Virus record (IMG/VR): IMGVR_UViG_2609459804_000025
Source of the DNA: a virus
Lineage: Duplodnaviria; Heunggongvirae; Uroviricota; Caudoviricetes
Length of the DNA: 39,153 nt
Strand: one strand, 5' to 3'
In this document: positions 1,413-34,873 of the stretch, piece by piece
How positions within the stretch are numbered: the stretch's first letter is position 1
Layout of the letters: every line of letters starts with the position of its first letter
Made by a program: the position numbers and the translations under genes
The notes under the pieces: generated by a model
Databases searched by the model: none
Told to the model about the DNA's origin: nothing
Seen by the model: the letters and a program-made list of their open reading frames with translations, nothing else

Positions 1413-1448
1413 AAGCCCGCAGTTTTTACGCTACGGGCTTTGTTTTTC
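1413..1448 (+). terminator. hairpin plus T-run, terminator-like
   Basis: aagcccg...cgggctt 7-bp perfect stem (loop 14 nt) followed by tgtttttc. Confidence 0.4.
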
Positions 1449-1803
1449 TTTGTGATTTGCGTGTGAGGGTGCTACTTTCGACCGAACCTTTGGCAACCGG
1501 ATAGCGGGGGCTTTCACCCCCGCTGCGGTTTCTTACGGTTTACACTGCAAGAACGCCGCAAATTCTGACCACATGATGTTAAGTCTGAACTCACACGGCG
1601 AACGGTGTATCATCCAGACTGTCAACAACATGGTTAAGCATAAAATGCTCACGATGATCGTTTTTTGCGGCATAGCGCTTGCTCCTTTTTCAAAGAGGCG
1701 CTAACCTTCCACTTGCGAAGGTTAGATGGTTAGGGCCTCGGGTTAAACAAATGTTTGACTCGGGGCCTTTTCACATCCGGCCTTCAGGTAATCCTTCCAG
1801 CCG

Positions 1804-2106
1804 TCAGCCGAAAGGCACCCGCGCGTAATGTACAGTTTTTGACTGGGAGGCGCAATCGCCCAGGGGGAGGCTGAGTTGATCCCTTCCCCGGTGGCATGAT
1901 TTGAAAGCGTCTGCGGGGACGACTCCCCGTTCTTCGGTGGGTTGCGGACGGCATACGGTTCTCACGACAAACTCGTGCGTCACAAAGGTGGCGCTGCATT
2001 CAATGTTGTTGCACTGGTAATATTTCTCCCTGATTGTTCCTGTATCGTTGGCGTCGCGGCTTGTTCTGGTGCGGGTACTTGCTCCGCAGTATGGGCAAGG
2101 ATGCAT
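1804..2106 (-). CDS. ogr: Ogr-type zinc-finger late transcription activator
   Basis: N-terminus MHPCPYCG...TSR...KYYQCNNIECSATF resembles P2 Ogr (Cys-x2-Cys ... Cys-x4-Cys); located just downstream of D on the same strand as in P2. The C-terminal third is longer than in P2 Ogr and not recognisable. Confidence 0.8.
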   Translation of the reverse strand: MHPCPYCGASTRTRTSRDANDTGTIREKYYQCNNIECSATFVTHEFVVRTVCRPQPTEERGVVPADAFKSCHRGRDQLSLPLGDCASQSKTVHYARVPFG

Positions 2107-2147
2107 GATGGTCCCCCTGGCTGAAACGGGGTGGGCTCGCGCTCATT

Positions 2148-3293: not shown

Positions 3294-3353
3294 GATATCC
3301 CTCCCGTGTGCGTATCATCCCACGCGTACCTTGTCGTTTCTGTCCGGCTCTGT

Positions 3354-3371
3354 TGTAAAAAAATCCCCACA
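3354..3371. promoter_or_regulatory. TGT-N12-ACA dyad (Ogr/Delta-type late-promoter activator site) between D and FI
   Basis: tgt aaaaaaatcccc aca read directly; centre is about 55 bp upstream of a plausible FI transcription start near 3417, matching the P2 late-promoter architecture. The site is palindromic and also lies about 70 bp upstream of the D start codon on the opposite strand. Confidence 0.45.
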
Positions 3372-3434
3372 GCCCGCATCAGGTGAGGGCTGTGCGCCAA
3401 TGGTGGATTATTCAGGCGAGCATAAACACAACTG

Positions 3435-4640
3435 ATGGTGAATCGTATGGCTGAAAAACGATTTCACGGTGTGCGCGTCACGGAGAATACCGACCTTGTG
3501 ACGGCCATTAATGACGTTGATTCCAGCGTCATTGGTATTGTTGCCGTTGCAGATGATGCGGATACCGGGCAGTTCCCCCTTAACAAGCCTGTGCTGATTA
3601 CCCGTGTATCTTCTGTTCTGGGGAAGGCCGGGAAAGCGGGCACGCTTTATAAGGCCCTTAAAGCGATATCTGACCAGGTCAGTACACGGGTGATTGTCGT
3701 TCGCGTGGAGGCGGCAAAAGAGGGGGCTGAGAATAAAACACAGGATCAACTGGTCATTGGTACCACGGAAGAAGACGGAAGCTACAGCGGTATGCAGGCG
3801 CTTCTGGTTGCCGAACAGATGGAAGGTATTGGTTACCGACCCCGCATTCTTGCCGCTCCGGGCCTTGAATCGGATGCTGTCACGGCTGCACTGGTGACTG
3901 TTGCCGGAAAAATGCGCGCATTTGCGTATTCCGGCTGCCCTGGCTGCACAAAACCGTCCGATGCTATTGCGTTCCGTAAAAAGATTTCCGGTCGCGAAAT
4001 CATGCTTCTGTGGCCTGATTTCATTGCGTTCAACCCGGTGTCCGGTAAAAACGAAACCTTCCCGGCTGCGGCGTATGCGTGCGGTCTTCGTGCCCGACTC
4101 GACCATGAACAGGGCTGGCATCGCTCCCTTTCTAACATGCCTGTGAAAAATGTTCTTGGGGTGTCAGCGTCTGTTTCCTGGTCACTTCAGGATGAAAACA
4201 GCGATGCCAACACGCTGAACAATAGCGAGGTGACCACTCTTATTCACCAGGGCGACGGCTCCTTCCGTTTCTGGGGTAACCGTACGCCGGAAACTGCGGA
4301 GTACATCTTTGAGGTGTACACACGTACGGCGCAGCAACTGGCTGACACCATTGCGGAGGCGCAACTTCAGATAGTGGATTCACCGCTTACGCCTGCCAAT
4401 GCTAAGGATGCCGTGAGCGCTATCAAGGCAAAGCTGGATGCACTGGTGACAGCCGGAAAACTCATCGGGGCTGAGTGCTGGTTCGATATCATCGACAACG
4501 GCACAACCAGTCTTCGTCAGGGCATTGTGCGTATTCGCTACAAATACACGCCTGTTCCGCCGATGGAGTGTATGGAACTCTATCAGACGTTTACCGACGA
4601 GTTCTTTGGCTCTGCTTTTGCATCTCTTGGAGGTAGCTAA
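3435..4640 (+). CDS. FI: contractile tail sheath protein FI
   Basis: 401 aa; close match to P2 gpFI as recalled (FPLNKPVLIT, GTTEEDG.Y.G, ILAAPGL, KMRAF, WPDF, DHEQGWH, WGNRT, YTRTAQ, YTPVPP). Alternative start ATG at 3447. Confidence 0.93.
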   Translation: MVNRMAEKRFHGVRVTENTDLVTAINDVDSSVIGIVAVADDADTGQFPLNKPVLITRVSSVLGKAGKAGTLYKALKAISDQVSTRVIVVRVEAAKEGAENKTQDQLVIGTTEEDGSYSGMQALLVAEQMEGIGYRPRILAAPGLESDAVTAALVTVAGKMRAFAYSGCPGCTKPSDAIAFRKKISGREIMLLWPDFIAFNPVSGKNETFPAAAYACGLRARLDHEQGWHRSLSNMPVKNVLGVSASVSWSLQDENSDANTLNNSEVTTLIHQGDGSFRFWGNRTPETAEYIFEVYTRTAQQLADTIAEAQLQIVDSPLTPANAKDAVSAIKAKLDALVTAGKLIGAECWFDIIDNGTTSLRQGIVRIRYKYTPVPPMECMELYQTFTDEFFGSAFASLGGS

Positions 4641-5152
4641 TGGCCGTACCAAAAAAACTTCGTGTGTTTACCGTCTTTGTGGACGGTGACAACAAGCTGG
4701 GCAAGGTGGCGTCTTTTACCCCGCCAAAACTGACCCGTAAAACAGAGTCGTATCGCGGGGCGGGGATGCCAGGCTCTGCGTCGGTGGATCTCGGTCTTGA
4801 TGATGGTGCACTGGATCTCTCCTTTGCGGTTGGTGGCGTCGATCGTCACATCTTTGCCAAATACGCCGCCGGTATTGATGCCGTGCGTGTTCGCTTCTCG
4901 GGTGAATACTATTCCGAAGAAGGGATTGAGTACGTCGATATTGAAGCCCGTGGTCGCATTGTCGAAATCGACAAGGGCGAGGCCAAACAGGGTGAAGATA
5001 CCGAACATACCTATGCGATGAAATGCACCTGGTACAAGCTCAGCGTTGATAACAGCGATGTTATTGAAATCGACGTGCTGAACTTCATCTGGCGCATTGA
5101 TGGTAAGGATGTTCTTCCTGACCGCACCCGCTCCATGCTGGGGCTTGGCTGA
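4640..5152 (+). CDS. FII: tail tube protein FII
   Basis: 170 aa; P2 gpFII-like (PPKLTRK.E.YRGAGM.GSA.VDLGLDD, GEAKQGEDTE); start overlaps FI stop (TAATG) with ggagg SD upstream. Confidence 0.93.
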   Translation: MAVPKKLRVFTVFVDGDNKLGKVASFTPPKLTRKTESYRGAGMPGSASVDLGLDDGALDLSFAVGGVDRHIFAKYAAGIDAVRVRFSGEYYSEEGIEYVDIEARGRIVEIDKGEAKQGEDTEHTYAMKCTWYKLSVDNSDVIEIDVLNFIWRIDGKDVLPDRTRSMLGLG

Positions 5153-5203
5153 TAGTTAAATCTGATAACAGGGGCGGCGTCCTGTTGCCCCGGGAGAAAA
5201 ATA

Positions 5204-5584
5204 ATGGATCAGACTGAAGAAAATATCGTGACGAATGACACAGATGCTGTGACGAATGGCGACACGGAAAACGCAGAGGCGATCGCAAATGACACGGTTA
5301 ATCTCAGGGTTCCTGTTGTCTGCGGTAATAAGACGGTTTCCAGCGTGAAGATTGGGGCGCTTGCGCGTCAGGTGGGCTCGCTTCGAGGGATCCGCATGAC
5401 GGACCTGTTCAACACCGATGTTGATGCTGCCGCCATTTTTCTGGAACGCGTAACTGAACCTCACCTCAGCCGCGCGGCACTTATGTCAATGTGCCCGGAA
5501 GACTTCTTTAAACTGTACGAGGTGGCAGTCGGTTTTTTGCTTCCCTCGTCAGCGAAGAAGGCGCAGGAGGCGGGCGGCGCGTAA
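5204..5584 (+). CDS. E: tail assembly chaperone E
   Basis: 126-aa ORF between FII and T, the conserved position of P2 gpE; contains the T6G slippery site near its 3' end. Confidence 0.8.
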   Translation: MDQTEENIVTNDTDAVTNGDTENAEAIANDTVNLRVPVVCGNKTVSSVKIGALARQVGSLRGIRMTDLFNTDVDAAAIFLERVTEPHLSRAALMSMCPEDFFKLYEVAVGFLLPSSAKKAQEAGGA

Positions 5585-15339: not shown

Positions 15340-17310
15340 TTATGCCGGTGGCTGATTTACGACAACGCTCAGGCTGTCAATCAGTACGGTATAGGTCGGC
15401 CGATACGTGATATCGGTCACGCGTAACGTGTCGTTGGTAACATCGGCTTTTGATGTGGAAAGCATGAACGGTTTTCCGTCCACGCCATCCAGAACCGGTG
15501 TTACCTGGGTGCTGTTGTTTCCCGCAAAACGAAACGCTATGGTGTGCCAGTTGTTATTGAACTGACCAAAGGTTCCCAGTTGTTCGTTTGGCGTTTTGTG
15601 ATACATCAGATTCAGGTTTGCGCTGTCTGTCTGAAGAAAGAATGAGAGCAATAAATTATTTGGATCTGCCCCCAGTAATTTCACATCCTGCGGTAATGCT
15701 GATGTTTTCCAGTACATCGCCATTGCGTACTGGTCTTTTTTCAGCTCACCCTCGATTTTGAATCGGCAACTTACAGTCCCGCCATTTTTCAGAAGGTCAG
15801 CACCATTACCGGCCTTATGCTCCAGATACCAGGTATTGCCTTCCTGTTTGGTCAGTTTCAGGGCTTTTTTCCCTGTTGCTTCCTCATCACCGATCAGCAT
15901 GTCTTTCAGTTGTTTTGGTGTGTTGGCCCCGTTTTTGCCTTCGCTCAGCGTCCAGCCCTGGCTTTCCCGTTCAGGAGATGATGCCAGCAGACTCATGAGC
16001 GTGACCGGCCCCGGTCTGACTGCCGGTTGTTCTGCTTCCGGTGAAGATGGCTTACTGATGCCGCCCGGTGCATCCTGTGATGGTTTTGCCACGCGTTCCG
16101 GCTCTGTACCCGCAATAAATGGCAGCGTGCGGCCGACGTTAAGCAGGATTGCTGACGCCATGCGATCGGCAATAATGCCCCGGCGGGCCCATGAGCTGAA
16201 GTGCGTTCCACGCAGATGGCTTACCCAGTTTCCGCTACTGCGGGATGCGGCACCGTAATAACCCGCTTCCGCAATATCCGGATCTTCTGTCGGCTCGTTT
16301 GTTGGGGTGTTTTTCCCGTACTCATCCGTAACAAAAGGCACAAAAACAATATTCTTCTCAGTGCTGTTTTTGTATCCGCCATACACGGTTGCGTACTGTG
16401 CTTCGTAGGTTTTTTTCCAGTGGTAGGTGGTATCTCCACAAATCCACGGCACGCTTTCAGGGTTGCCCTGGTTGCACTGCTTCGCAACATCGGCCAGGTC
16501 AGCCCGGAACTGCTTCACCATGGCTGTGAAAAGATCTTTATGCTGTGCGGCGTTTTGTTCTTTCTCAAGATCTGCCTCGCCCTGTGTCCAGCAGACGGCC
16601 AGCAGGACGTTTTTCGGATTTTTCGCCAGCGCTGCTTTTGTGCGGCTGATTAAATCCTTGTACAGCGGCGTGTTCGTTCCCCAGCGGCAGGATTTTTCAG
16701 TTGCGCCGCCGATCTCGCTGAATTGCCCCGCATCACCGGTTGTAAAGCCGGAACCGCCACGGCTGCATGGGACCAGAAGGATCCCCGCATTTGCCGGGAT
16801 AAATGGCAGCAGGCGCTTCGCAATGTGCAATCCCTGACTCACACAGCCATGCTGACCTTTGTTCAGGTCGGCTTTCGGGTGGTTGTACTGGCTCATATCC
16901 TGCACGTCATGCAGGCAGTGATCCGCCAGAATGATGTCGTTATAGGCACAAGCTTTTCCGCCCGGGGTTACGGTGCTGCGGCGTGCCAGCTGGCGAATGC
17001 GCGAATCGGGTTTATCGTAACTTTCCGGGAGAGGTAACCCCTCACCGTATGCCATAGAGTTGGACTGACCAGCGCTCACCACAACGTAATACCACTCCGG
17101 TTCGCTGTCGGATGTCGGGGTGATAATGGTGCCTCCCTGGTCATCACTGCCTGAAACCATAGCCTGCATGAGATACCAGGGGACTCCCGGCTCTGATGCA
17201 ATACCGGCATTACCGAGAAGTTCCCAGCCTTCCTGTAACCGCTTGTTAACTTTTTCAGCGAATTCTGCGCGGTTGGTGGCAGTAATCAGTTCAAAGTGTT
17301 TTTTGCTCAT
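15340..17310 (-). CDS. sialate O-acetylesterase-like protein (N-terminal DUF1737-like domain + SASA/SGNH esterase domain with GQSN motif; NanS-p-like prophage cargo)
   Basis: 656 aa; VVVSAGQSNSMAYGEG contains the GQSN catalytic-serine motif of sialate O-acetylesterase (SASA) domains; domain order resembles prophage NanS-p esterases of enterohaemorrhagic E. coli; SD aggag 6 nt upstream of ATG, 3 nt after the lysC stop. Confidence 0.75.
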   Translation of the reverse strand: MSKKHFELITATNRAEFAEKVNKRLQEGWELLGNAGIASEPGVPWYLMQAMVSGSDDQGGTIITPTSDSEPEWYYVVVSAGQSNSMAYGEGLPLPESYDKPDSRIRQLARRSTVTPGGKACAYNDIILADHCLHDVQDMSQYNHPKADLNKGQHGCVSQGLHIAKRLLPFIPANAGILLVPCSRGGSGFTTGDAGQFSEIGGATEKSCRWGTNTPLYKDLISRTKAALAKNPKNVLLAVCWTQGEADLEKEQNAAQHKDLFTAMVKQFRADLADVAKQCNQGNPESVPWICGDTTYHWKKTYEAQYATVYGGYKNSTEKNIVFVPFVTDEYGKNTPTNEPTEDPDIAEAGYYGAASRSSGNWVSHLRGTHFSSWARRGIIADRMASAILLNVGRTLPFIAGTEPERVAKPSQDAPGGISKPSSPEAEQPAVRPGPVTLMSLLASSPERESQGWTLSEGKNGANTPKQLKDMLIGDEEATGKKALKLTKQEGNTWYLEHKAGNGADLLKNGGTVSCRFKIEGELKKDQYAMAMYWKTSALPQDVKLLGADPNNLLLSFFLQTDSANLNLMYHKTPNEQLGTFGQFNNNWHTIAFRFAGNNSTQVTPVLDGVDGKPFMLSTSKADVTNDTLRVTDITYRPTYTVLIDSLSVVVNQPPA

Positions 17311-22375: not shown

Positions 22376-22441
22376 TGGCACCGGATACCTGGATGAATGC
22401 GCGGGCGTTTACTCTTGAGATCAAACAGCAAGGGGGCGTCA

Positions 22442-24175
22442 ATGATTCAGGATGCATTTGTCCGCATAAGGGCAAGACAACTTTACTGGCAAGGGTACAC
22501 ACCTGCGGAAATCTCGCAACTGATGGGGATCAGCCAGAACACGATTTACTCATGGAAAAAACGCGATGAGTGGGATGCCACACCTCCGATCCAGCGGGTC
22601 ACCCAGTCCATTGATGCGCGCCTGATCCAGCTCACCACAAAAACAGAGAAAAGCGGCAGCGATTTTAAGGAAATTGACCTTCTCACGCGCCAGCTGAAAA
22701 AACTGAATGACGGTCAGGGAGAACAGGCCGTTTCCGGTAAAAAGCCCCGTAAACGCAGACTGAAAAATCACTTCACCGAAGAACAGATTGTCGCGCTTCG
22801 TGAAAAAATCCTCCCGACGCTGGCGTGGCATCAACGTGAATGGTACGAAAACCGTCACCACCGCAACCGTATGATCCTGAAGTCGCGTCAGATTGGTGCG
22901 ACCTGGTATTTTGCGCGCGAGGCGCTCCTTGATGCACTGCGTGATGACGTCTCCGCCGGGTATCAGCGCAACCAGATATTTTTGTCCGCCTCCCGTCGTC
23001 AGGCGTATCAGTTCAAGCATTTTATTCAGCAGGCGGCGCTGGAAGTGGATGTTGAGCTGAAAGGGGGCGACAAGATCGTGCTGTCCAACGGCGCGGAGCT
23101 GCACTTCCTCGGTACGTCAGCTGCCACCGCGCAGTCCTATACCGGTCATCTTAAATTCGACGAATTTTTCTGGGTCAGTAACTTTGTGAACCTCAGGAAG
23201 GTTGCCGGGGCAATGGCGACCCTGGAAGGGCTTACGCGCACTTACTTCTCGACGCCGTCGGGGGAAATGCATGAGGCGTATCAGTTCTGGACGGGGGGCC
23301 GCTGGAACAGCGAACAGCCACGCTCAAAACGCAGTGAGTTTGATGTTTCACATGCTCACCTGAAGAGGGGCGTGCTCTTTCCCGACAAAACGTGGCGGCA
23401 GATTGTCACCATTGAGGATGCTGTCGCTAACGGATGGCAGTTCACCAGTATTGATGATATTCGCGGCGAAAATACAGAAAGTGAATTTCGCAATCTGTAC
23501 ATGTGCGAATTTGTCCGTGATGGTGAGGCAGCCTTCAGTCTGAATACGCTCGTCGGGTGCGGTGTTGATGGCTATGACGAATGGCCGGACTGGAAGCCTT
23601 TTGCTGTCCGCCCTATGGGGGTGAGGGAAGTCTGGCTCGGGTATGACGCCAACGGCAGCAGCGGGAAGGGGGACTGCGGGGCGCTGTCGGTGTGCGTGCC
23701 ACCCCTTGTTGCCGGTGGGCGTTTTCGTACGGTGGAAACCGTCAGGGTTCAGGGCATGGAGTTTGAACAGCAGGCCGCCCTGATTGAGGAGTACACCCAA
23801 AAATACAATGTGAAGCATATCGGGATTGATGTCACCGGCGGGAACGGGGAAGGGGTTTATCAGATAGTGAAAAAATTCTTCCCCCTGGCTGTTCCGTATA
23901 ACTTTAATATCGCTTCAAAGCGGGCGCTGGTCATGAAGATGCTTCAGGTGGTCCGTGCCGGACGCTGGGAGTATGACCGCAGCGAGCGCGACCTGGTACA
24001 GGCCTTTGCATCGGTGCGAAAAATACAGACGCCCGGCGGCTATATCACCTATGACACTGACCGCTCACGCGGTGTCAGTCATGGTGATCTCGCCTGGGCA
24101 ACCATGCTTGCTGTTATCAATGAGCCAATCGGCGCAGAGCGTGAGGATAATCGTGGCTTTGCAATGGAGTTCTGA
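22442..24175 (+). CDS. P: terminase ATPase (large) subunit P
   Basis: About 577 aa from MIQDAF (SD aggggg upstream); P2 gpP-type terminase large subunit by size, divergent position opposite O and adjacency to portal Q. The track start at 22397 would lie upstream of the predicted late-promoter TSS. Confidence 0.9.
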   Translation: MIQDAFVRIRARQLYWQGYTPAEISQLMGISQNTIYSWKKRDEWDATPPIQRVTQSIDARLIQLTTKTEKSGSDFKEIDLLTRQLKKLNDGQGEQAVSGKKPRKRRLKNHFTEEQIVALREKILPTLAWHQREWYENRHHRNRMILKSRQIGATWYFAREALLDALRDDVSAGYQRNQIFLSASRRQAYQFKHFIQQAALEVDVELKGGDKIVLSNGAELHFLGTSAATAQSYTGHLKFDEFFWVSNFVNLRKVAGAMATLEGLTRTYFSTPSGEMHEAYQFWTGGRWNSEQPRSKRSEFDVSHAHLKRGVLFPDKTWRQIVTIEDAVANGWQFTSIDDIRGENTESEFRNLYMCEFVRDGEAAFSLNTLVGCGVDGYDEWPDWKPFAVRPMGVREVWLGYDANGSSGKGDCGALSVCVPPLVAGGRFRTVETVRVQGMEFEQQAALIEEYTQKYNVKHIGIDVTGGNGEGVYQIVKKFFPLAVPYNFNIASKRALVMKMLQVVRAGRWEYDRSERDLVQAFASVRKIQTPGGYITYDTDRSRGVSHGDLAWATMLAVINEPIGAEREDNRGFAMEF

Positions 24176-24180: not shown

Positions 24181-25224
24181 ATGAGTAAACGTAAAAAATA
24201 CACCGGAAAGCGCGGCACGGGCTCACTGGCTGATGCACTGAAATCAGCGCCGTCACTCAGTGCTTTCACGTTTGACGGTCCTTATGAAGCAAGCCGTCTT
24301 GATCTGCTTGATAACATGTCGTGCGCCGATAATGGCCGCTACTATGACACCCCCATGGACTGGAATGCCATTGCTCGCGCCTCGCGTCGTGCATCATGGC
24401 ACCAGTCGGCCCTGTATTTTAAGCGTAATGCCCTGAACGGCTGCTTTGTTCCTCATCCGCTACTGTCCCGCCAGGCGTTTTCCGCGTTTGCGCTGGACTG
24501 GTTCGTGTTCGGTAATGCCTATCTTGAAGTCCGCCGCAACAAGTTCGGTGAACCCATTGCGCTTCGTCCTGCGCTGGCGAAATACACGCGGCGGGGCAGT
24601 GATCTCGATACGTACTGGTACCTCAATGATGATGGTTCTGAATTTGCTTTCCGTAAGGGGGCTGTGTGCCACGTTCTGAACCCCGATATCAACCAGGAAA
24701 TCTACGGGATGCCGGAGTATATCGGTGGGTTGCTGTCGGTGAGTCTGTCGAACTCAGCGGATACGTTCCGCAAGCTCTACTATGACAACGGTTCACATGC
24801 CGGGTGCATTGTCTATGTTGGTGCCGCCCAGGCAAACGCTGAAAGCGTGGAAGCCATCAAGAAAACACTCACGGAATCCCGTGGCAAGGGGGCGTTCCGC
24901 AATATCCTTCTGCACGCGCCAGGTGGCGGCAAGGATGGTGTGCAAATACTGCCGTTCCAGCAAATCACCGCGAAGGACGAATTCCTTAACATCAAGGGGA
25001 GTGCCCGCGACGATATCCTTGCGGCTCACCGTGTACCGCCTCAGCTGATGGGGGCAATGCCTGACGGGAACGCGGCGTTCGGTGACGTTGAGAAGGCGGC
25101 GAGGGTATTTTTCATCAACGAGTTGCAACCGGTCATGGAAGCGATGAAGCATGTCAATGAATGGCTTGGGGTTGAAGTGATGCGCTTTAATCCCTATTCG
25201 CTGCTTCAGGATGGCGCCAGCTGA
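24181..25224 (+). CDS. Q: portal (capsid vertex) protein Q
   Basis: 347 aa; P2 gpQ-type portal by size and position immediately after P and before the cos region. Confidence 0.9.
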   Translation: MSKRKKYTGKRGTGSLADALKSAPSLSAFTFDGPYEASRLDLLDNMSCADNGRYYDTPMDWNAIARASRRASWHQSALYFKRNALNGCFVPHPLLSRQAFSAFALDWFVFGNAYLEVRRNKFGEPIALRPALAKYTRRGSDLDTYWYLNDDGSEFAFRKGAVCHVLNPDINQEIYGMPEYIGGLLSVSLSNSADTFRKLYYDNGSHAGCIVYVGAAQANAESVEAIKKTLTESRGKGAFRNILLHAPGGGKDGVQILPFQQITAKDEFLNIKGSARDDILAAHRVPPQLMGAMPDGNAAFGDVEKAARVFFINELQPVMEAMKHVNEWLGVEVMRFNPYSLLQDGAS

Positions 25225-25557
25225 CGCGCTTCGCTTGTCGGCTGCTTCGCCGGGGCATAAAAAATTTATGCCCCGACTCTCCAGCTCTGTCAACGCAATA
25301 CACCTTTCGCTTCTCAACTCATCAATAACATTTAACATTATGTTTTGCTGTGGTTTTTCTCTTTTTCGCGTCATGCCTGCGGTGTGATGTTTCCGCATTT
25401 AATCCCGACCCCGTAAAACTCAACCAGACGCATTCTGGCGGCCTGTTTTTCTGACTCTGTTTCGGTGTGGTTTTTTCAGAACCGGCTTCACTGCGTGCGT
25501 ATCACGCGCAATACGACCCCAAATAAAGCAACCTGCCTTCCACCCCTCAATTCGGGC

Positions 25558-25580
25558 GCCCTTCCCTCGTCGCCTGCGCG
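25558..25580. other. candidate cos (cohesive-end) site
   Basis: Reverse complement GGCGACGAGGGAAGGGCGC resembles the 19-nt P2/186 cohesive end (GGCGAGGCGGGGAAAGCAC) at 13 of 19 positions and lies where cos is expected, between Q and the accessory island. Recalled from memory, not searched. Confidence 0.3.
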
Positions 25581-25660: not shown

Positions 25661-25690
25661 TCAAAAAAATTGTGCAAATTTGTGCACTAT
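25661..25690. repeat. three direct repeats of (a/t)TTGTGCA(a/c) at exact 10-bp spacing
   Basis: attgtgcaaa / tttgtgcact / attgtgcaaa read directly at 25661, 25671, 25681; helical phasing suggests a protein-binding array about 100 bp from the candidate cos. Confidence 0.55.
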
Positions 25691-25935
25691 TGTGCAAACC
25701 GAACGGAGTGCTTATTTATAGAAAAATTGAGCCTATGTATACGACGTTGCTTATAAATACATCCCTGACTGTTATGTGAAAATATGCAAAGAAAATTACA
25801 TGCTATGGAGATGAGAGTTATAACGACCTTTTCTACTTATTTGTAAAAGAGGTCGTTATGTAAAAGTTAAATTATTTTTTACTCTTGATATGTGTAAAAA
25901 ATATAGCTTTGATGTTTATATTCTATTAGAATACA

Positions 25936-27633
25936 TTATTTATCCTCTTTAATGATTTTGTTATAGTCAAAATCCCAAATTTTTCTGTCAATGCCGTTTG
26001 TTGGTGTAACCCGGTAGAATAAGGATCGTAATCCATTGTAAAAATACTGGAGAGATTTCTGATTTTCTGGTTTGTTTAACCAGTTTCTTGTAATCATTCT
26101 AAAGAATTCAATATGCTGATTGAATATTTTCTTATTTAATTTTCTGCTTAAACCGGATGTAGACTCATGGTTGTCTTTTCTTTTCTGAATTTCAGTTTCA
26201 ATTGATTGTAATTGAGGACGTATCTTGAGTAAGTATAACTCTTTCGAAAAACCATTGTTAATTATATCCTGATTTTCCCAGAAGGAAGAGTCGTCGGTAT
26301 TATAAAGGTGCTCACAATGCTCAAATATCAATTGTTCTGGAGCTTTTTCACCCGGCAGTGATATAATTCCTCTCTGATCCTCAGGGCTGTGATCTCCATC
26401 AAGAATACAAATTGATTTTAACGAGGTTTCCTTAAGATGAGAATCATTAAAAATAGTTTTTAAATTGTCTGCACCAATGAAACAATCAATTAAGTGAAAT
26501 GAATTACTAACTATAGCAAAATTTGGATATTTGCTTATCCAATAACCAAGTATTTCATTAAATAAAAAGCGAGCTTCTTCATCTTCCGTGAAAACTGGTA
26601 TCTTGTTCCTTGTGTATATCTCATCCTTTGTTTGTGTTTTCAGATACATTGTTATTTTTAATATATCAGGATTATCCAAAAGCAGAGCCTTTGTAATATT
26701 GTTAATTAGATAGACAACATGGTATTTTTTATGAAAAGCATATTCTAGCAATGTCAGACTGTGCGTTGTGAAAAATACTTGAATCTTATAATCTTTTGCG
26801 TATTGATAAATTTTATCTAATAATCTTATCTGTAAAGAAGGATGTAAAGTGGCATCAAATTCATCTATTAACAGAATGCTTTCTTTTTGATCAGTGGATT
26901 GAATAAGTGATTCAAAATAATACCTAAGGCTAACTAATGCCTTGATTATAATGAATATATTGTCTTCCCCGGATGATATGGTATTAGAATCAATTGCTGG
27001 GTTATCGGTATCAAATAATGGGCCAGCTTTAAAATCTCCGATATTGTTTGATTCTATATTTATAATATTAATGCCCAAAAGTTCATTATATATTTTCGAT
27101 ATATAACCAACATACTCTTCTGGTAGGTTTAACGGAATTTTTGTAAGGGCGTCGTCTTTAGTTTCACCAATCGGGAATAGTCGCGATAATCCAAGATATA
27201 AAACTGGTTTAGCTGGAAGTGATTGTTTTTCTTTTCCGCGTGGGTATACTGGTTTGATAGCATACCGTTGCGCTTCGTCTGGATTTTTTGAGTTGTGCTT
27301 TCTGAAGTCTAGTGTGCTATGATCCAAATAGTTAATAGAAAATAACACACCTTTTGTTCCCTCTGCCGGATCGGTGTAATTTTTTGATTCCCTAACAATT
27401 GCTTCCATTTTTGGGTTGGCTATTTTGTTTATAGATTTTATAACTCTAACACAATTACTATTTGAATAATTTTGTGATCTAGATGGTGGTATTTGGAAAC
27501 CATTGCTAATTAAATGAAGCAATGTTGTCTTACATGTCCCATTGGTTCCTGATATTATATTGATGTCTTCATTGAATGAGAAGTCAATATCTATCAGTTT
27601 CTTAAATTTTTTAAAACTAATTTCTTTAATCAT
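25936..27633 (-). CDS. ABC-type ATPase with C-terminal TOPRIM-like nuclease domain (OLD-family-like ATP-dependent nuclease)
   Basis: 565 aa; Walker A ISGTNGTCKTTLL, signature-like ISSGEDN, Walker B/D-loop ILLIDEFDATLHP, H-loop FFTTHS; C-terminal FTEDEE and ILDGDH fit TOPRIM E and DxD motifs. Very AT-rich coding sequence; SD aaggatg. Confidence 0.8.
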   Translation of the reverse strand: MIKEISFKKFKKLIDIDFSFNEDINIISGTNGTCKTTLLHLISNGFQIPPSRSQNYSNSNCVRVIKSINKIANPKMEAIVRESKNYTDPAEGTKGVLFSINYLDHSTLDFRKHNSKNPDEAQRYAIKPVYPRGKEKQSLPAKPVLYLGLSRLFPIGETKDDALTKIPLNLPEEYVGYISKIYNELLGINIINIESNNIGDFKAGPLFDTDNPAIDSNTISSGEDNIFIIIKALVSLRYYFESLIQSTDQKESILLIDEFDATLHPSLQIRLLDKIYQYAKDYKIQVFFTTHSLTLLEYAFHKKYHVVYLINNITKALLLDNPDILKITMYLKTQTKDEIYTRNKIPVFTEDEEARFLFNEILGYWISKYPNFAIVSNSFHLIDCFIGADNLKTIFNDSHLKETSLKSICILDGDHSPEDQRGIISLPGEKAPEQLIFEHCEHLYNTDDSSFWENQDIINNGFSKELYLLKIRPQLQSIETEIQKRKDNHESTSGLSRKLNKKIFNQHIEFFRMITRNWLNKPENQKSLQYFYNGLRSLFYRVTPTNGIDRKIWDFDYNKIIKEDK

Positions 27634-27650
27634 CTATATCATCCTTAAAT

Positions 27651-28496
27651 TTAAATGTCAGGGATTTTTATACCATGATTATAAATGATAATTTCTAGAC
27701 CTTTTTTCTTATCTTGTGCAGTATAATTAAGCGTATAATCAGTCATGTTGAATTCATGATATATGCTTTTTATTTCAGGCACATTGTCATAAGACACAAC
27801 CCAAGGTAGTTGAATTTCACGTAGTGTATTAGCGATTTTTACATGATCATCATGTTTATAAAAATTTCTATATAACTCTGCTCCTTTAACATAATAAGGT
27901 GGATCAAGATATATTAGACTATTTTGGGGTAGTAATGCTTTTTGGTGTAGCAGAAAATCTGCAGCATCAAAATTCGATACGTAAATTTTCTCCTTATATG
28001 CACCAATTAGTTCAATCCTTTTAATTAACTCTTTTTTGTTGAATCTTGCATCTAACTTCCATGGTCCTTTTTGTTCTTTCCCTCCAATAACGCCAGCCTT
28101 AAGTATTCCTGAACGGTTTGTTCTATTTAAAAAGAAAGTAGATAATGCGACTTCAAGCATACTATATTTATCATTGTTTAGGAGTATCTCCTTTTGAGTA
28201 TGCCAATTTTCAATAGTCACAGGAACTTCATCAATCATTTCACATAACAGATCGTTATGATTAACCACTGCAAACCAAAAAGAATAAAGGGCAGGATCAA
28301 TATCATTTATGAAGATATTTTCAACAAGACCGTTAAGGAGCAAACCTAATGCTACACCGGCTCCACCTGCATAAGGTTCAGCATAACATCCACCAATGAG
28401 ATCATTGTTGCGGAGTATTTGTTCAATATGTGGCAAGAATTTTGCCTTACCTCCCGGATAACGAAGAGGGGTTCTAAAATGAGAAGGCTTTGTCAT
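27651..28496 (-). CDS. N6-adenine DNA methyltransferase, D12 (Dam-like) class
   Basis: 281 aa; N-terminal RYPGGK...EPYAGGAGV (AdoMet-binding, Dam motif order) and catalytic DPPY (IYLDPPYY); AT-rich like the downstream nuclease gene, 17 bp apart on the same strand. Confidence 0.85.
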   Translation of the reverse strand: MTKPSHFRTPLRYPGGKAKFLPHIEQILRNNDLIGGCYAEPYAGGAGVALGLLLNGLVENIFINDIDPALYSFWFAVVNHNDLLCEMIDEVPVTIENWHTQKEILLNNDKYSMLEVALSTFFLNRTNRSGILKAGVIGGKEQKGPWKLDARFNKKELIKRIELIGAYKEKIYVSNFDAADFLLHQKALLPQNSLIYLDPPYYVKGAELYRNFYKHDDHVKIANTLREIQLPWVVSYDNVPEIKSIYHEFNMTDYTLNYTAQDKKKGLEIIIYNHGIKIPDI

Positions 28497-28756
28497 CCAC
28501 GATTTTCTCAGTAAAAAATAAACATAATCTTAACATGGCACTTGAGTTTTCCCGATAAAAAACATCGTCGCCGTCCATAGATATTTGCATAGTTATGCAA
28601 AAAATCCAGTTTTCAATGAATTAAGGGGAATTATATCAATTGCATTCTATTCAACACAATATTCGGTTAGCGATTCACATCTCATCCCTCATGATGGAAA
28701 AGGCATATCCAACTTTGTAATTGTTTTTTCTCATCATCATTTTGATTACTAAAGTG

Positions 28757-31540
28757 CTATTTGCCTCTCTTTTGGAGCAAAGTAGCCTTGCGGCGGGCGC
28801 GTTCAGTGGTTTCATTGATTCTTTGTGCGTGCTCTGTGTCACGGATGGCGCGCAGCATGTCAGAAAGCACGGTAACGGGAGTTTTCATGCTGTTCTGGTC
28901 CTGCTGAATTGTGGATGCCAGGCGTGCGGCGGCTTCGGGGTCTGATGCCCCGAGCTGCTCCAGATAGCTGGCGACCGGGTTATGGCGGATCTCCGTGCTG
29001 CTTACGCCGTGATTACGGCTCAGGCGCTGCCAGAGCTGCGTGATTCGGCTGTCCGGGCGGGTATCCGGTTTGCGTACAATTTCAAATCCCTGCGGTGCAA
29101 TGATGCTGCCGTCAACGTACAGAGTGCCGCCCCGTAACAGGTACTGCATCTGCTGTTCACCGATATGCAGGCCGAGAGATTCGGCAGACTCCCGCCATTC
29201 TTTAGCGAGTAACTCGTGGTTATCAGGCAAAGGCCGTGGCTGTTTGCGGCTCTGTGTCCAGTTCTGCATTTCATCACTGCTGTTTTTTGCCTGTTTGTCA
29301 CGCAGCGAACGCATCAGCGCCCGGCGTTCGTGCCGTTTCAGTGAGCGCATCCACTCATCCACATCAACGCCGTCAGGGATCTGCGTCCACGGTGTTGGTT
29401 GCTCTTCCGACTGTTCTGTCCCGCTGTTGCCTGTTTCCTGTACACGGGGACAGTTATTGCCACGAGTCCAAGGTGCGGCGAAGCCGCCCCCAACGTCAAA
29501 ACCCTCGTCCGTGCTGTTGTCGGATTTCGCTTCTTTTCTGACCAGTTTCCATTCGTCCGGATGGGTACAGATGGTGTAGCGCTCGCCGAGCGACGGGGCA
29601 CAAATTCCGTAGATGCGCTGCGGGAATTCGCCGTAGTCGTTGGCCTCATCTGCGGTTTCGTATGCGGTGCGGATCAGGTACAGGTTGCGTGGAATGAGCA
29701 CGCCGCCCTGACGGTTGATGTAGGTGGCAAAACACCCCACGTCAGCGGCGGCCAGAATGGCGTCAATGTCGTCATGGTCCAGGCGCTTCGGTGATGCGGG
29801 GTTACGCTCCATTTGTCCGGCAAGGCGGCGGAGTTCACGCCATACCTGTCGGGGCGGGATACCGAAGAACTGGAACTGCCGGATGCGGTGGAGACTCGCC
29901 CAGGCAATGGCGTTTTCCACGGTTTCCGCCATGGTTTTTCCCGATTCTTTATCGGCGTAAGGTTTGCCGGTTTTCGGGTCATTGTCGTGAAAGGTGCTGG
30001 CGTCCAGGTTCTTGCCAATATAGGTTGCGATGTAGCTTGCCGGTGTGCCTTTTGCCGGGTCGATTTTTTCGCACTTGAAGCGCGGAGAAATATCATTCCC
30101 CAGTTCTGCGCGATCTGATTTGATTGCTGCGTCACGCATGATTTCAATGATGCGTTCTTCATTGTCCGGGGCGGTGAATACCAGCATGTGCCAGTGCGGT
30201 GTGCCGTCATGGTGTGGCTCAACGGTGCGCACCCCGTACCAGCTCAGGCCTTCTTTGTTGAGTTTTTTTCTTGCAGCTGCAAAGACGTCGTAAACCAGAT
30301 AATCACTGGCATCGCGCACGGTGGCACCGTTGTATTTCGGGTTCAGGCTGCCGTCCTCGTTCACGCTGTGAAAGCGGGAAGGGCAGGTTACTGTCACGAA
30401 GAACGCGGAGTCACCACGCGATTCGGCGACCTGTTCCATCCCTCTGACGCAGGCCATCATCTCGTTGCGGCGGTTGCGCGGATTCCCCAGCCCTGACCAG
30501 TACACGTCCTCCAGACTCAAGCGTTCACCGTCTTCGTTTTCAATGTCCCAGCTTTTGAGAAAATCACGGGTGCGCTGGCGTTTCTCCCGGAATTCCTGGA
30601 GTGACTCATGGCTGATGTAGGGGGATGCCTTGCGCGATACTCTTCCGGCGGCACGCAGTAATTCCTCCCGCCAGAGATCAGCGAGGTGGCGCAGCTGGTT
30701 GTTCCACCAGGTGGCGCAGGTGATACGCATTACCGCACCCGGTACCAGTTCAGGGTCTGGTGCCGTGCGGCGGTCACGTCTGATCTCGAGTGACGGCCAG
30801 TATGGTGGGTTCACGCCCAGTTTTATTGCCATGCGCGCCAGCTGCTGGTAAGTCAGCAACCAGGTAAACAGGTTATCGTCGCCTTTTCCTGTCCGCTCAG
30901 TAACTTCATCACATATGCGTTCCAGTTCGGTGGAAAATGCCGCCGCCGTTAGTGTGGCAAGGCGCTGAATTTGATTACGGTTGAGTTGTGGCAGCATGAG
31001 TAATTCATCAAGGCGATGGCGTGCTGCGGTGGCTTTGAATGCTGTCGTGGCGAAGCATTCATTCACCTGTTCGATGCGTTTCAGGCGTGTGCGCAGTCCA
31101 CGGCGAACGAAGTTATCGGCCACGTGAGTGTTGTTGTTTTTCACGCCTTCATTGCGGGCGCTTTGTTGTTTGCGGTTTAAACGCGCCAGATCACGAATGA
31201 GCGCGTTACCAAGAAACGAGGGCAGGGCGCGAAGTTCTGCCATGGCTTCAGATACCAGCGTTGGCGGATTTTCGCGTTTGTGCCGCGCCAGTTTTTCCAG
31301 TCTGATCCGACGCTCTTCGTCGTGGTGAAGGTGCGAATTAATTCGCTTGCCTTCGTCTGTGTTTGTCAGGAAGTCGACGGTTTCTTCATCCAGTCTGGCG
31401 TCAGTGCGAATATCCTCGTTGATGTAGCTCTGAATGGCCTGGCGTAATGCGGTTGGCTGTGCTCTGCCGAACGTTTCAGGATCGATAACCGGTAGCGGGG
31501 CGTTCCACGGGTACGCCAGTTGTGCGTTATGGTCGCTCAT
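28757..31540 (-). CDS. A: replication initiation endonuclease A (rolling-circle Rep, P2 gpA family) with long C-terminal extension
   Basis: About 927 aa from MSDHN (ATGA overlap with upstream ORF stop); contains VEPHHDGTPHWHMLVF (HUH metal-binding motif) and ASYIATYIGKNLD (catalytic tyrosine motif), both as in P2 gpA. Confidence 0.88.
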   Translation of the reverse strand: MSDHNAQLAYPWNAPLPVIDPETFGRAQPTALRQAIQSYINEDIRTDARLDEETVDFLTNTDEGKRINSHLHHDEERRIRLEKLARHKRENPPTLVSEAMAELRALPSFLGNALIRDLARLNRKQQSARNEGVKNNNTHVADNFVRRGLRTRLKRIEQVNECFATTAFKATAARHRLDELLMLPQLNRNQIQRLATLTAAAFSTELERICDEVTERTGKGDDNLFTWLLTYQQLARMAIKLGVNPPYWPSLEIRRDRRTAPDPELVPGAVMRITCATWWNNQLRHLADLWREELLRAAGRVSRKASPYISHESLQEFREKRQRTRDFLKSWDIENEDGERLSLEDVYWSGLGNPRNRRNEMMACVRGMEQVAESRGDSAFFVTVTCPSRFHSVNEDGSLNPKYNGATVRDASDYLVYDVFAAARKKLNKEGLSWYGVRTVEPHHDGTPHWHMLVFTAPDNEERIIEIMRDAAIKSDRAELGNDISPRFKCEKIDPAKGTPASYIATYIGKNLDASTFHDNDPKTGKPYADKESGKTMAETVENAIAWASLHRIRQFQFFGIPPRQVWRELRRLAGQMERNPASPKRLDHDDIDAILAAADVGCFATYINRQGGVLIPRNLYLIRTAYETADEANDYGEFPQRIYGICAPSLGERYTICTHPDEWKLVRKEAKSDNSTDEGFDVGGGFAAPWTRGNNCPRVQETGNSGTEQSEEQPTPWTQIPDGVDVDEWMRSLKRHERRALMRSLRDKQAKNSSDEMQNWTQSRKQPRPLPDNHELLAKEWRESAESLGLHIGEQQMQYLLRGGTLYVDGSIIAPQGFEIVRKPDTRPDSRITQLWQRLSRNHGVSSTEIRHNPVASYLEQLGASDPEAAARLASTIQQDQNSMKTPVTVLSDMLRAIRDTEHAQRINETTERARRKATLLQKRGK

Positions 31541-31953
31541 GCGTCGCACTCCCCGGCAGTTGCCACCTGAAACGCCGCGCGGTACAGCACGAGAAGGCGC
31601 TGGTATTCGCCGATAAAACCTTCTGCGGTGTATATACCTTTCACGGCCACGCTGTGGGTTGTCATTTCCAGAACCAGCGCCATCTCTGATGACGACCAGC
31701 TGATGGCGGTACTGTCGGTGCCGTTGATGTGAAATAAACCCAGTCCATCACCATCACCTTTCACGTCCACGCGGTAACGACCGTCCACGGTGAAGGAGAA
31801 ATCCCCGTATGTGGTGACGCTGCGGGCAGCCTGTTTACAGGCGCGGCGGTAATAGTCGTGCCAGTTGTTCAGGCGGGAAGCCAGCAGGGGATCCACCGCC
31901 CACATCCAGTTAAAGAAGTCCTGAATATCTGAAAGTCCCTTAACGCTCTTCAT
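31537..31953 (-). CDS. hypothetical early protein (138 aa) immediately upstream of A
   Basis: ORF with stop/start coupling to A; no recognised motif. Confidence 0.55.
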   Translation of the reverse strand: MKSVKGLSDIQDFFNWMWAVDPLLASRLNNWHDYYRRACKQAARSVTTYGDFSFTVDGRYRVDVKGDGDGLGLFHINGTDSTAISWSSSEMALVLEMTTHSVAVKGIYTAEGFIGEYQRLLVLYRAAFQVATAGECDA

Positions 31954-33892: not shown

Positions 33893-34873
33893 TCACGTAC
33901 TGGCAGGGGTAAACATCACGCTGTAAGTTGCATCTCCCGTTACAGGTCCGCAGTCCGGGCAGTAGCCACCGCCATGGTGACCGCAGGCGTCGCACTGTCT
34001 CAGGGTGGCGATAACCTCCGGTGCTGATTCCCGGGTTCTTGCGCCAACGCTTCGTGGTGCCTGTATGCAGTTCATCCGGTAACCCCGATAAATGCGTCGT
34101 GTTTCCGGTGTGTCGGAATTGGAGATGGTGATGCTGGTCATGCCGCCCGTTTCCTGTGAAAGGCGGTCAAGCGCTGCCCTCAGACGAACGTGCTCGTCTT
34201 CATCGAATGGTTTTCCGTAGGCGGTAAAATTGTCCCGGCCACTGAATTGCAGGTAAGGGGGATCGCAGTACACGCAAAGCGTGTTGCCCATGCCGAACAG
34301 GTGACTGGCAGAGTTCAGCGTATCCTTAAAATCTGCGTGGATAAGCAGCGTTCGGGTGCTGTTTGCCTTGTCTGCAAATGCGCGGATTTCACGCTCAGGG
34401 AAGTAGGGCTTGCGGTAGCAGCCGAAAGGCACGTTAAAATCGCCTTTTCCGTTCACGCGGAACAAACCGTTAAAGCTGTGTCGGTTCAGGTACAAAAACA
34501 TGGCGGCCAGTCGCAGTTCACGGCGGTCGCTTATTCCCGTTCTGCTGTTCAGGAAGGCATGATTCTCTGCGTTAAAGGTTTCGCGAATGATGAGATAGTT
34601 ACCCCTGTTGTTGTGGTTCAGGAACAGGGTTTTCGCCTCGTCGATCAGGTTGTCGGTGTTGTCCCTGGCTTGCCGGTAGAAATTAATCAGCGCACCATTG
34701 GAATCACCCAGGATGTAACGCTTGTAACTGGTGTTCATGAATACCGATGCGCCACCCACAAACGGCTCAACCAGGCAGTCTGCTTCTGGCAGATGCGCCT
34801 TCAGTGTGTTCATGATGCGACTTTTTCCGCCCACCCATTTAAGCGGCGTGCCGGATAACAGTTCTTTGCTCAT
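33893..34873 (-). CDS. dam: DNA adenine methyltransferase (Dam, D12 class) with C-terminal Cys-rich zinc-ribbon-like extension
   Basis: 326 aa; KWVGGK...VEPFVGGASVF and catalytic DPPY (VYCDPPYLQF); C-terminus CDACGHHGGGYCPDCG. Confidence 0.85.
   Translation of the reverse strand: MSKELLSGTPLKWVGGKSRIMNTLKAHLPEADCLVEPFVGGASVFMNTSYKRYILGDSNGALINFYRQARDNTDNLIDEAKTLFLNHNNRGNYLIIRETFNAENHAFLNSRTGISDRRELRLAAMFLYLNRHSFNGLFRVNGKGDFNVPFGCYRKPYFPEREIRAFADKANSTRTLLIHADFKDTLNSASHLFGMGNTLCVYCDPPYLQFSGRDNFTAYGKPFDEDEHVRLRAALDRLSQETGGMTSITISNSDTPETRRIYRGYRMNCIQAPRSVGARTRESAPEVIATLRQCDACGHHGGGYCPDCGPVTGDATYSVMFTPAST

Follow-up and report, generated by a model that had tools for sequence, protein, structure and literature searches.

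An AT-rich island in the P2 old/tin hotspot of the P2-like E. coli prophage studied here is, on balance, probably a two-gene, methyltransferase-anchored defence cassette of restriction-modification-like character, carried as cargo and joining a D12-class adenine DNA methyltransferase (MTase) to an ABC ATPase whose C-terminal part is TOPRIM-like. We favour this reading because the two genes are strictly linked, their motifs are intact, the MTase belongs to the PD-λ-5_B family, one Pantoea locus is a hybrid with PD-λ-5, the pair decays asymmetrically, the location is the P2 hotspot and the same prophage has a separate orphan Dam. The gene pair is strictly conserved but unnamed.

Position and composition of the island

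The window, that is, the whole stretch of 39,153 nucleotides that was analysed, contains two same-strand genes 17 bp apart, and their coordinates, strand and spacer are as the first-pass annotation had given them. The features of the island, from the upstream end, are as follows.

28497-28756, minus strand: AT-rich intergenic region from the end of gene A to the MTase start codon, presumed promoter region
27651-28496, minus strand: gene (281 aa) for a D12-class N6-adenine DNA MTase of the PD-λ-5_B family, assigned from profile matches and motifs
27634-27650, minus strand: intergenic spacer of 17 bp, read from the sequence, with an AAGGA Shine-Dalgarno site 7 nt 5' of the ATPase ATG
25936-27633, minus strand: gene (565 aa) for the ATPase-nuclease
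26674-27633, minus strand: N-terminal ABC ATPase domain, about residues 1-320 of the 565-aa protein
26344-26616, minus strand: TOPRIM-like nuclease core, about residues 340-430, with strand 1 ending at E350-D351 and D412-G413-D414 following strand 3
25939-26343, minus strand: C-terminal all-helical domain, about residues 431-565, with AF2 pLDDT >90 over most of its length and invariant K501 and F531
25672-25935, minus strand: 3' tail, again rich in AT; a hairpin lies at 25820-25860, and a terminator-like stem with a T-run after it at 25687-25672

The G+C content is 0.337 in the MTase gene and 0.316 in the ATPase gene, and that of the island as a whole (25690-28756) is 0.32 as against 0.539 in the remaining window, which bears out the striking AT-richness first ascribed to the two genes relative to their flanks; no other such trough occurs in the 39 kb. 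On one side of the island lie a P2-type terminase (22397-24175), the portal gene (24181-25224) and a cos-like sequence near 25556-25575, and on the other the GPA replication endonuclease, gene A (28757-31549). These flanking genes agree with the earlier placement of the pair at the P2 tin/old locus between replication gene A and cos, the slot from portal/cos to gene A being the old/tin position of P2. Of 5426 complete E. coli genomes, 15 have a near-identical island (98-99.6% identity) in the corresponding place of a prophage; lysogens include the strains AR_0013 and E110019.

The spacer and the AAGGA site between the MTase and ATPase genes fit co-transcription and coupled expression. In the region 5' of the MTase gene a perfect TATAAT can be read on the minus strand at 28635-28630, accompanied by a weak -35 element only; because a consensus promoter scan, which returned 13 sites against 15.7 expected from shuffles and hence no excess, listed none in 28497-28756, we treat this region as a candidate promoter. 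The terminator-like site in the 3' tail was found by a scan on the minus strand.

The methyltransferase

The 281-aa protein, accession WP_001581117, carries YPGGK at residue 13, the AdoMet-binding EPYAGGAGV at residue 40 and the catalytic DPPY at residue 198. Its original designation as a Dam-class enzyme holds for the D12 adenine MTase family, since it passes the Pfam model PF02086 (E 1.7e-20, 74.2 bits, cut-off 22), but not for the Dam family itself, where its 71.2 bits fall short of the TIGR00571 cut-off of 114.85. The PADLOC model PD-Lambda-5_B (PDLC04018) is matched over almost the full length (E 1.2e-121, 403.5 bits), and the second-best PADLOC match is to MTase_II, a Type II model (E 2e-107). 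MTases that have PD-λ-5_A or another ATPase-TOPRIM protein as their partner share 46-57% identity with the 281-aa protein. Its closest solved structure, 7m6b, is only a distant D12 relative.

A second MTase in the window (33893-34873), situated in the early region of the prophage, scores 226.8 bits against TIGR00571 and is a Dam-family orphan. The prophage therefore has a Dam of its own and does not depend on the cargo MTase for the general functions of a phage Dam.

The ABC ATPase with a TOPRIM-like domain

In the 565-aa protein an ABC ATPase belonging to the OLD/PtuA/AriA clade is followed by a C-terminal TOPRIM-like domain. Every motif quoted on first reading is present in the pair, namely, besides the YPGGK and DPPY of the MTase, GTNGTCKTT at residue 29, LLIDEFD at 254, TTHS at 289, FTEDEE at 348 and ILDGDH at 410. 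The ABC domain, which exceeds the Pfam cut-offs for both AAA_15 and AAA_21 and is by profile nearest to PtuA, AriA and OLD, comprises Walker A (G29-N31-K35), the signature (S220-G222-D224), Walker B (D257-E258) and the H-loop (H291), and over five ATPase clades K35, S220/G222/D224, D257/E258 and H291 are invariant. Likewise, E350/D351 and D412/D414 of the TOPRIM-like core are invariant over these five clades. Since these key residues are conserved and the DPPY and AdoMet motifs of the MTase are intact, both enzymes of the pair look active.

The relation to OLD nucleases is less straightforward. The first-pass annotation had read an OLD-like architecture and had proposed profile searches as a check; AAA_15/AAA_21 and D12 were matched, and an ABC ATPase with what looks like a TOPRIM domain in its C-terminal part is indeed present, but the curated OLD-like_TOPRIM model failed and no Pfam OLD TOPRIM match was obtained. 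Thus, neither the full protein nor its C-terminal fragment nor any of the 21 family members scanned gave a Pfam match to TOPRIM, OLD-like_TOPRIM or DUF4435, and PF20469 (OLD-like_TOPRIM) in particular matched none of the 565-aa protein, its C-terminal fragment and 20 relatives at E values up to 1-5; P2 Old, used as a control, passes this model with 64.6 bits against a cut-off of 23.2 (E 1e-17). Aligning the family profile with P2 Old by hhalign brought together the Walker B region alone (75% probability), and in PDB profile searches with A1 and A3 the matches were confined to the ATPase motifs. The best full-length structural matches are retron-Eco8 OLD, GajA and TsOLD, and ABC heads were also matched.

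The closest validated relative of the 565-aa protein is HEC-04. Among the PADLOC models it scores best against the entire protein (PDLC04149, E 1e-16), the alignment covering only residues 249-445 against model positions 230-409 of 494, and it is the sole one that the C-terminal domain matches by itself (E 2.7e-7), in the stretch containing E319/D375/D377 of HEC-04. Across PADLOC-DB v2.0.0, the ATPase has partial matches only, to generic ATPase models and to HEC-04. In full-length relatives, which are 545-615 aa long, the C-terminal domain always occupies about residues 315-560. The helical domain at the very C-terminus gave no match to any family and is specific to the ATPase-TOPRIM family of the island; it could serve in binding DNA or a partner protein.

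The two genes as a co-inherited unit

The MTase adjoins the ATPase gene in 44 of 46 viral loci and, as the other two stop at a contig edge, in 44/44 informative ones. It is likewise adjacent at all eight genomic look-ups (8/8: Pectobacterium, Citrobacter, Pantoea, Proteus, Desulfosporosinus, Sporomusa and metagenomes), and when the search starts from the MTase, the ATPase is present at 19/19 informative loci. The survey, which had been suggested as a check on the pair and which spans Proteobacteria, Firmicutes and metagenomes, therefore found the two genes co-occurring throughout, a linkage of the restriction-modification type with no nuclease lacking an MTase in the 44, 19 and 8 informative loci. 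The paired genes lie 13-120 bp apart, on the same strand in all loci except one, and the pairing is kept in both gene orders and down to ATPase identities of 19-26%. Such a pair occurs in about 107 of 5426 complete E. coli genomes (~2%), and most relatives of the pair reside in prophages or other mobile elements.

The pairing is thus not due to chance, and the two genes form a co-inherited unit, as had been supposed from their composition. An alternative entertained at the outset was that an orphan anti-restriction or epigenetic MTase merely happens to lie beside a standalone, Class-1-like OLD nuclease. Orphan D12 MTases are common in phages, Class 1 OLD genes do stand alone, and P2 has old at this very position; against this, however, the genes are adjacent at every informative locus and in both orders, their atypical G+C content is common to both, and the prophage already has a Dam-family orphan at 33893-34873. 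The linkage survey effectively refutes this explanation, to which we attach next to no credence.

The two partners evolve at different rates. Discordant pairs occur in which MTases 90-96% identical to each other stand beside ATPases of only 19-26% identity, and three ATPase clades about 20% identical accompany a single MTase clade of at least 80% identity. A conserved MTase beside a fast-diverging nuclease is what is expected for isospecific restriction-modification systems, and the pattern for this reason supports the restriction-modification-like reading.

Relation to known defence systems

A search of the literature by accession number and by several combinations of terms brought up no account of the pairing of ATPase-TOPRIM with the MTase, and the main text of Rousset 2022 mentions no methylase at the P2 hotspot. 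Comparative papers on phosphorothioate and BREX systems are not relevant to the MTase-ATPase pair. The proposal that the system is undescribed accordingly stands for the pair but not for its MTase half, which is already part of PD-λ-5, an experimentally validated, broad defence system termed by its authors a compacted RM+Abi (PMC9519451, Vassallo et al. 2022). PD-λ-5 could be cloned only in an mrr-deleted host (PMC9519451), which implies adenine methylation in vivo.

The two systems draw on one MTase family, the 281-aa MTase being 52% identical to that of L003, a bona fide PD-λ-5 locus. Each is an AT-rich cassette of two genes that prophages carry as cargo, and in E. coli each is found at the P2 hotspot. 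The effectors, in contrast, are unrelated: PD-λ-5_A is a ParB/HEPN-type protein of 467-501 aa, and its place is taken here by the 565-aa ABC ATPase-TOPRIM fusion, which has no BLASTP similarity to PD-λ-5_A proteins and no PD-Lambda-5_A model among its 25 best PADLOC matches. The window, including the region upstream of its MTase, contains no PD-Lambda-5_A gene or remnant. The locus itself was therefore rejected as PD-λ-5, component B being matched but component A absent, and with an effector unrelated to PD-λ-5_A it would not be called by the PADLOC definition of that system. Since its MTase half falls in the validated PD-λ-5 family, the cassette is a sister of PD-λ-5 with the effector replaced, and not wholly new. 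One MTase family thus pairs with a ParB/HEPN effector in PD-λ-5 proper and with ATPase-TOPRIM here, and one Pantoea locus, at 357287-363984 of CP171471.1 from Pantoea vagans, unites the two systems on a single MTase, with PD-λ-5_A, MTase and ATPase-TOPRIM genes in a row, so that two effectors share one MTase.

HEC-04 is a single-gene ABC ATPase-TOPRIM fusion nested in Hma (helicase-methylase-ATPase) systems, which defends alone, is toxic on induction and requires the Walker A lysine together with the E/DxD residues E319/D375/D377 (Payne et al. 2024 preprint). The window protein has the same architecture and an equivalent E...DxD spacing; however, HEC-04 is a lone gene in Hma loci, whereas the window protein is found in strict association with a D12 MTase at the P2 hotspot, a context in which no helicase or Hma genes are found.

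The protein resembles the OLD family in its N-terminal ABC ATPase and, further on, in a candidate TOPRIM that would carry the acidic metal site; its genomic slot is that of P2 old. The five OLD classes and their contexts are Class 1 (P2 Old/TsOLD), standing alone; Class 2 (GajA), with a UvrD-like helicase; Class 3 (retron-Eco8), with retron RT/ncRNA; Class 4 (PARIS), as split AriA/AriB; and Class 5 (Cran1), with a membrane protein (PMC10568477, PMC12796447). As previously noted, none of these classes has an MTase as its defining partner (PMC10568477, PMC12796447), and the D12 MTase context fits none of the five definitions. The 565-aa protein differs further in failing PF20469 and in its family-specific helical C-terminal domain. 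Class 1 was rejected on account of that failure and of the obligate MTase partner, and the locus has no DUF4435-type TOPRIM partner or fusion such as marks PARIS.

Finally, Type II restriction-modification systems with a D12/Dam-like MTase, for example the DpnII family, likewise couple a small stand-alone adenine MTase closely with a nuclease gene, the MTase being conserved, the nuclease fast-diverging and the cassette mobile and AT-rich. What sets the present pair apart from classical Type II systems is that its putative endonuclease would be ATP-dependent and TOPRIM-based. The established restriction-endonuclease folds are, to our knowledge, PD-(D/E)XK, HNH, GIY-YIG, PLD and half-pipe, and none of them is present in the 565-aa protein.

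These comparisons raise a serious, albeit in our judgement unlikely, alternative, in which the ATPase-TOPRIM protein acts as a sensor and effector of infection, like PARIS, HEC-04 and retron-Eco8 OLD, and is triggered by a phage protein or DNA structure and not by the absence of methylation. With comparably limited plausibility, the MTase might then provide an antitoxin-like restraint, regulate the operon or be itself the guarded component; in this last version, which we think no more probable, a phage anti-methylation or anti-restriction factor would inhibit the MTase and so release the nuclease. In its favour, HEC-04 acts by itself and its induction is toxic, the profile neighbours PtuA, AriA and OLD belong to sensor-type systems, the ~20%-identical ATPase clades beside an MTase clade of at least 80% identity resemble sensor diversification, and Vassallo et al. 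call PD-λ-5 RM+Abi. Yet an MTase unaccompanied by another restriction enzyme offers no defence activity that could be guarded, an MTase with a purely regulatory role should hardly stay linked in 44/44 and 19/19 loci, to two unrelated effector types and in both orders, and the three-gene Pantoea locus is more simply viewed as two readers of one mark.

A proposed mechanism

Direct support exists for what the domains are, for the invariance of their catalytic residues, for the strict linkage of the genes, for effectors being exchanged beside a conserved MTase and for the island's place as prophage cargo. Under the restriction-modification-like reading, the D12-class MTase would methylate adenines in a short motif throughout the DNA of the lysogen. 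Its ABC ATPase-TOPRIM partner would engage DNA by binding and hydrolysing ATP, and would then nick or cut unmarked DNA, such as that of an incoming phage, sparing the methylated self DNA. We infer from the genomic evidence both that the pair defends against phage and that methylation acts as the restraint on the nuclease.

A more far-reaching and more tentative proposal, which we put somewhat short of probable, is that the ATPase-TOPRIM protein is a new kind of restriction endonuclease, an ATP-driven ABC clamp that has its catalytic centre in TOPRIM and tells adenine-methylated from unmethylated DNA, and that the PD-λ-5-type MTase is a self-mark hub for swappable and stackable effectors. Those that could perhaps plug into such a hub are the ParB/HEPN type and at least five ATPase-TOPRIM clades.

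The logic could in principle be inverted, the nuclease being methylation-dependent (Type IV-like), or the MTase marking DNA for repair or replication control directed by ATPase-TOPRIM. An ABC ATPase together with an adenine MTase recalls Dam-directed mismatch repair (Dam/MutH), and Cran1, of OLD Class 5, has a non-defence role (PMC12796447). However, a nuclease that depends on methylation would turn against the host when its own MTase is encoded alongside it, and housekeeping poorly fits an accessory, AT-rich, mobile-element cassette that occurs sporadically (~2% of E. coli); we regard either form of inversion as very improbable.

The pair decays asymmetrically, in keeping with the restriction-modification-like reading. 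At two loci, L076 and L091, a broken ATPase gene accompanies an intact MTase, and the reverse, a broken MTase with an intact ATPase, was not found in about 90 loci. This asymmetry would also suit an addiction module stabilising the prophage, in which loss of the island dilutes methylation and a long-lived nuclease kills the cell, phage defence being a side effect. Selfish behaviour of restriction-modification systems is established and general, and the pair does sit in a mobile prophage cargo slot. Nevertheless, addiction needs the same methylation-gated nuclease and concerns the selective benefit more than the mechanism; moreover, PD-λ-5, the sister system, protects strongly and broadly against phages, and the P2 locus is a documented hotspot of defence genes (PMC9122126, PMC9519451). 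We thus consider addiction improbable as the main account of the cassette.

Implications for defence systems and their evolution

If the restriction-modification-like reading is true, about 2% of complete E. coli genomes carry an unannotated defence system that is also widespread in prophages of Enterobacterales and Firmicutes. The pair goes uncalled in PADLOC-DB v2.0.0, the MTase would pass for an orphan or for an incomplete PD-λ-5, and the nuclease is currently labelled just 'AAA family ATPase'. Such a system would extend OLD-like nucleases to a methylation-linked context outside every current OLD class, and would provide a tractable model for the choice of DNA targets by ABC ATPase-TOPRIM enzymes, including P2 Old, Gabija and the retron OLDs. 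Were the MTase in addition a self-mark hub, there would be an MTase-linked class of OLD-like nucleases, and TOPRIM would be added to the folds of restriction enzymes. Effector swapping on a constant MTase, together with the Pantoea hybrid, is a concrete example of modular defence evolution and may help to explain how PD-λ-5 acts. Cassettes of this kind would affect the host range of phage therapy and the transformability of clinical E. coli lineages.

Linkage and genomic setting

The decisive result concerns linkage, from which the two genes of the island emerge as a co-selected functional unit. Both ORFs lie where the first-pass annotation had placed them, on the minus strand and 17 bp apart, with an AAGGA ribosome-binding site inside the spacer; the prophage also carries a second D12 methyltransferase (MTase) gene.

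27651-28496, minus strand: hotspot MTase, 281 aa, GC 0.337
25936-27633, minus strand: ATPase-TOPRIM protein, 565 aa, GC 0.316
33893-34873, minus strand: second D12 MTase, 326 aa, GC 0.54, in the prophage early region

Full-length homologues of the ATPase, 45-83% identical, extend from the Enterobacterales through to Desulfosporosinus and Sporomusa, and at all those looked up (8/8) a D12 MTase adjoins the ATPase gene. A scan across viral contigs identified 46 ATPase loci (26-100% identity), of which 44 have the MTase alongside and two stop at a contig edge, while with the MTase as the starting point an upstream ATPase was present in 19 of 19 informative loci. Gene order varies, both orders being seen and a divergent orientation at one locus; a broken ATPase gene stands beside an intact MTase at two loci, and the reverse at none. 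The possibility that these are independent neighbours, which had been raised in the form of an MTase unrelated to a standalone OLD nuclease, is effectively excluded by this survey.

The island (25690-28756) is the sole trough of its kind, with a GC content of 0.32 against 0.539 in the remainder of the 39-kb window, and the AT-richness ascribed to both genes is thus borne out. It is flanked by a terminase and a portal gene of P2 type, by a cos-like sequence at ~25.56 kb and by the GPA replication endonuclease, and occupies, as first proposed, the slot holding tin and old in P2. Of 5426 complete E. coli genomes, 15 carry the island (98-99.6% identity) at an identical place in the prophage; it was not found in the deposited-phage collection. 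The prophage of E. coli AR_0013 (locus L001), otherwise 99.6% identical, is probably defective at its portal gene (4499-5545), which bears an internal stop and is annotated as a pseudogene; its cargo pair is intact. The replication endonuclease of the window (28757-31549, minus strand) is of 930 aa, compared with 761 aa for P2 gpA, the GPA domain occupying only residues 193-517 between long N- and C-terminal extensions. Elsewhere, amid morphogenesis and lysis genes, a stretch of slightly low GC (0.49) holds a 656-aa ORF (15340-17310, minus strand) that has DUF1737, SASA (sialate/carbohydrate acetylesterase) and DUF6645 domains and may be a further cargo or lysogenic-conversion gene.

The two proteins

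All the motifs quoted in the first-pass annotation were recovered, each at a defined residue, whereas its family assignments stood only in part. The hotspot MTase belongs to the D12 class (Pfam, 74.2 bits, cut-off 22) with intact AdoMet-binding and DPPY motifs, but with 71.2 bits it stays under the 114.85-bit threshold of the curated Dam-family model; its top match by a wide margin is PADLOC PD-Lambda-5_B (E 1.2e-121). The true Dam-family member is the product of 33893-34873 (TIGR00571, 226.8 bits, cut-off 114.85), best matched by PADLOC orphan-MTase models and only 23% identical to the cargo enzyme. This prophage thus has adenine MTases from two subfamilies and, since it already possesses a generic phage Dam, the hotspot MTase is something else. 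Two D12 MTases per prophage are also seen in Desulfosporosinus (L013 1002-1784 and L030 502-1263, minus strand), where the extra enzyme, of ~253-260 aa, is encoded on the other strand some 2 kb upstream of the pair.

The N-terminal half of the 565-aa protein is an ABC ATPase, with AAA_15 and AAA_21 over the Pfam cut-off and the PtuA, TsOLD and AriA ATPases nearest by profile. An AlphaFold model (40-sequence alignment, pLDDT 79.7) has as its best Foldseek matches full-length OLD proteins, namely retron-Eco8 OLD (E 5e-11), GajA and TsOLD, and a C-terminal fragment matches the TOPRIM portion only of the PADLOC HEC-04 model (E 2.7e-7). However, neither this protein nor 20 relatives from five clades matched any Pfam TOPRIM family, whereas P2 Old reaches E 1e-17 against OLD-like_TOPRIM, and the profile alignment with P2 Old is limited to the Walker B region. 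The protein is therefore OLD-like in its predicted architecture, while membership of the curated OLD family is not demonstrable. A census of the C-terminal domain yielded, from 1.84 billion proteins, 161 cluster representatives; where relatives are full-length (545-615 aa) the domain always falls at ~residues 315-560.

Relation to known systems

OLD classes have been defined by the absence of a partner or by a helicase, a retron, a split gene pair or a membrane protein, with eleven more clades uncharacterised, and an MTase linkage is described for none (PMC10568477, PMC12796447), in keeping with the original suggestion of an undescribed pairing. PD-λ-5, a validated two-gene system from ECOR7, is described as 'ParB/HEPN, methyltransferase' (PMC9519451). 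The MTase family is common to both, but the effector here is OLD-like, so that the pair is a sister of PD-λ-5, and one which we have not found described: literature searches returned no description of an ATPase-TOPRIM and MTase pair, PADLOC-DB v2.0.0 gave for the ATPase no more than partial matches, which were to HEC-04 and to generic ATPase models, and the public database names of the proteins are generic.

Exchange of effectors and possible mechanism

We read the pair as anchored on an MTase that would mark self DNA and with which different nuclease effectors can be combined. The MTase family was detected in 134 complete E. coli genomes, a number roughly covered by those in which its partner is the window-type ATPase (15), one of two further ATPase-TOPRIM types (85 and 7), PD-λ-5_A at the P2 hotspot (22) or, in lambdoid prophages, a ParB/Srx variant (9). 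Across 48 distinct pairs the divergence of MTase and ATPase is nearly uncorrelated (Spearman 0.15), ATPases of 19-26% identity adjoining MTases of 90-96% identity. There are five ATPase clades, all retaining Walker A/B, the signature motif, the H-loop, 'ED.EA' and 'DxD', and three pair with a single MTase clade (>= 80% identical). In the IMG/VR contigs L077-L094, ATPase-TOPRIM genes of three clades, ~20% identical between clades, stand before a near-constant 292-aa MTase (3480-4358, 89-96% identity between pairs), an arrangement that implies cassette replacement directly upstream of an MTase that stays in place. In Pantoea vagans (CP171471.1 357287-363984; L096/L097, locus coordinates 57-4198) an AT-rich locus (GC 0.32) has three genes in succession: PD-Lambda-5_A (486 aa, E 4e-150), a D12 MTase and an ATPase-TOPRIM sharing 68% identity with that of the window, one MTase being common to both effector types. 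Of 104 loci it alone is such a hybrid; a relaxase gene lies nearby. In three metagenomic contigs (L102 55-1431, minus strand, also L103 and L104) a 458-aa ParB_N-domain gene, matched by no PADLOC model, PD-Lambda-5_A included, is divergent beside the pair and may serve in partition or represent another type of effector.

A restriction-modification-like mechanism is the simplest, and we lean slightly towards it: methylation by the MTase would protect self DNA, while DNA devoid of the mark would be attacked by the ATP-driven TOPRIM nuclease. An addiction role would involve the same mechanism and be compatible with defence. The main rival, in which the nuclease would act by a sensor or Abi mechanism and not read methylation, appears rather unlikely; it has support in the fast diversification of the ATPase and in the autonomy of HEC-04, an ABC ATPase-TOPRIM fusion in which defence needs the Walker A lysine and E319/D375/D377 (Payne et al. 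2024 preprint). The interest of the pair is that it is widespread, unannotated and readily testable; should the restriction-modification-like reading be true, TOPRIM could become a restriction-enzyme fold.
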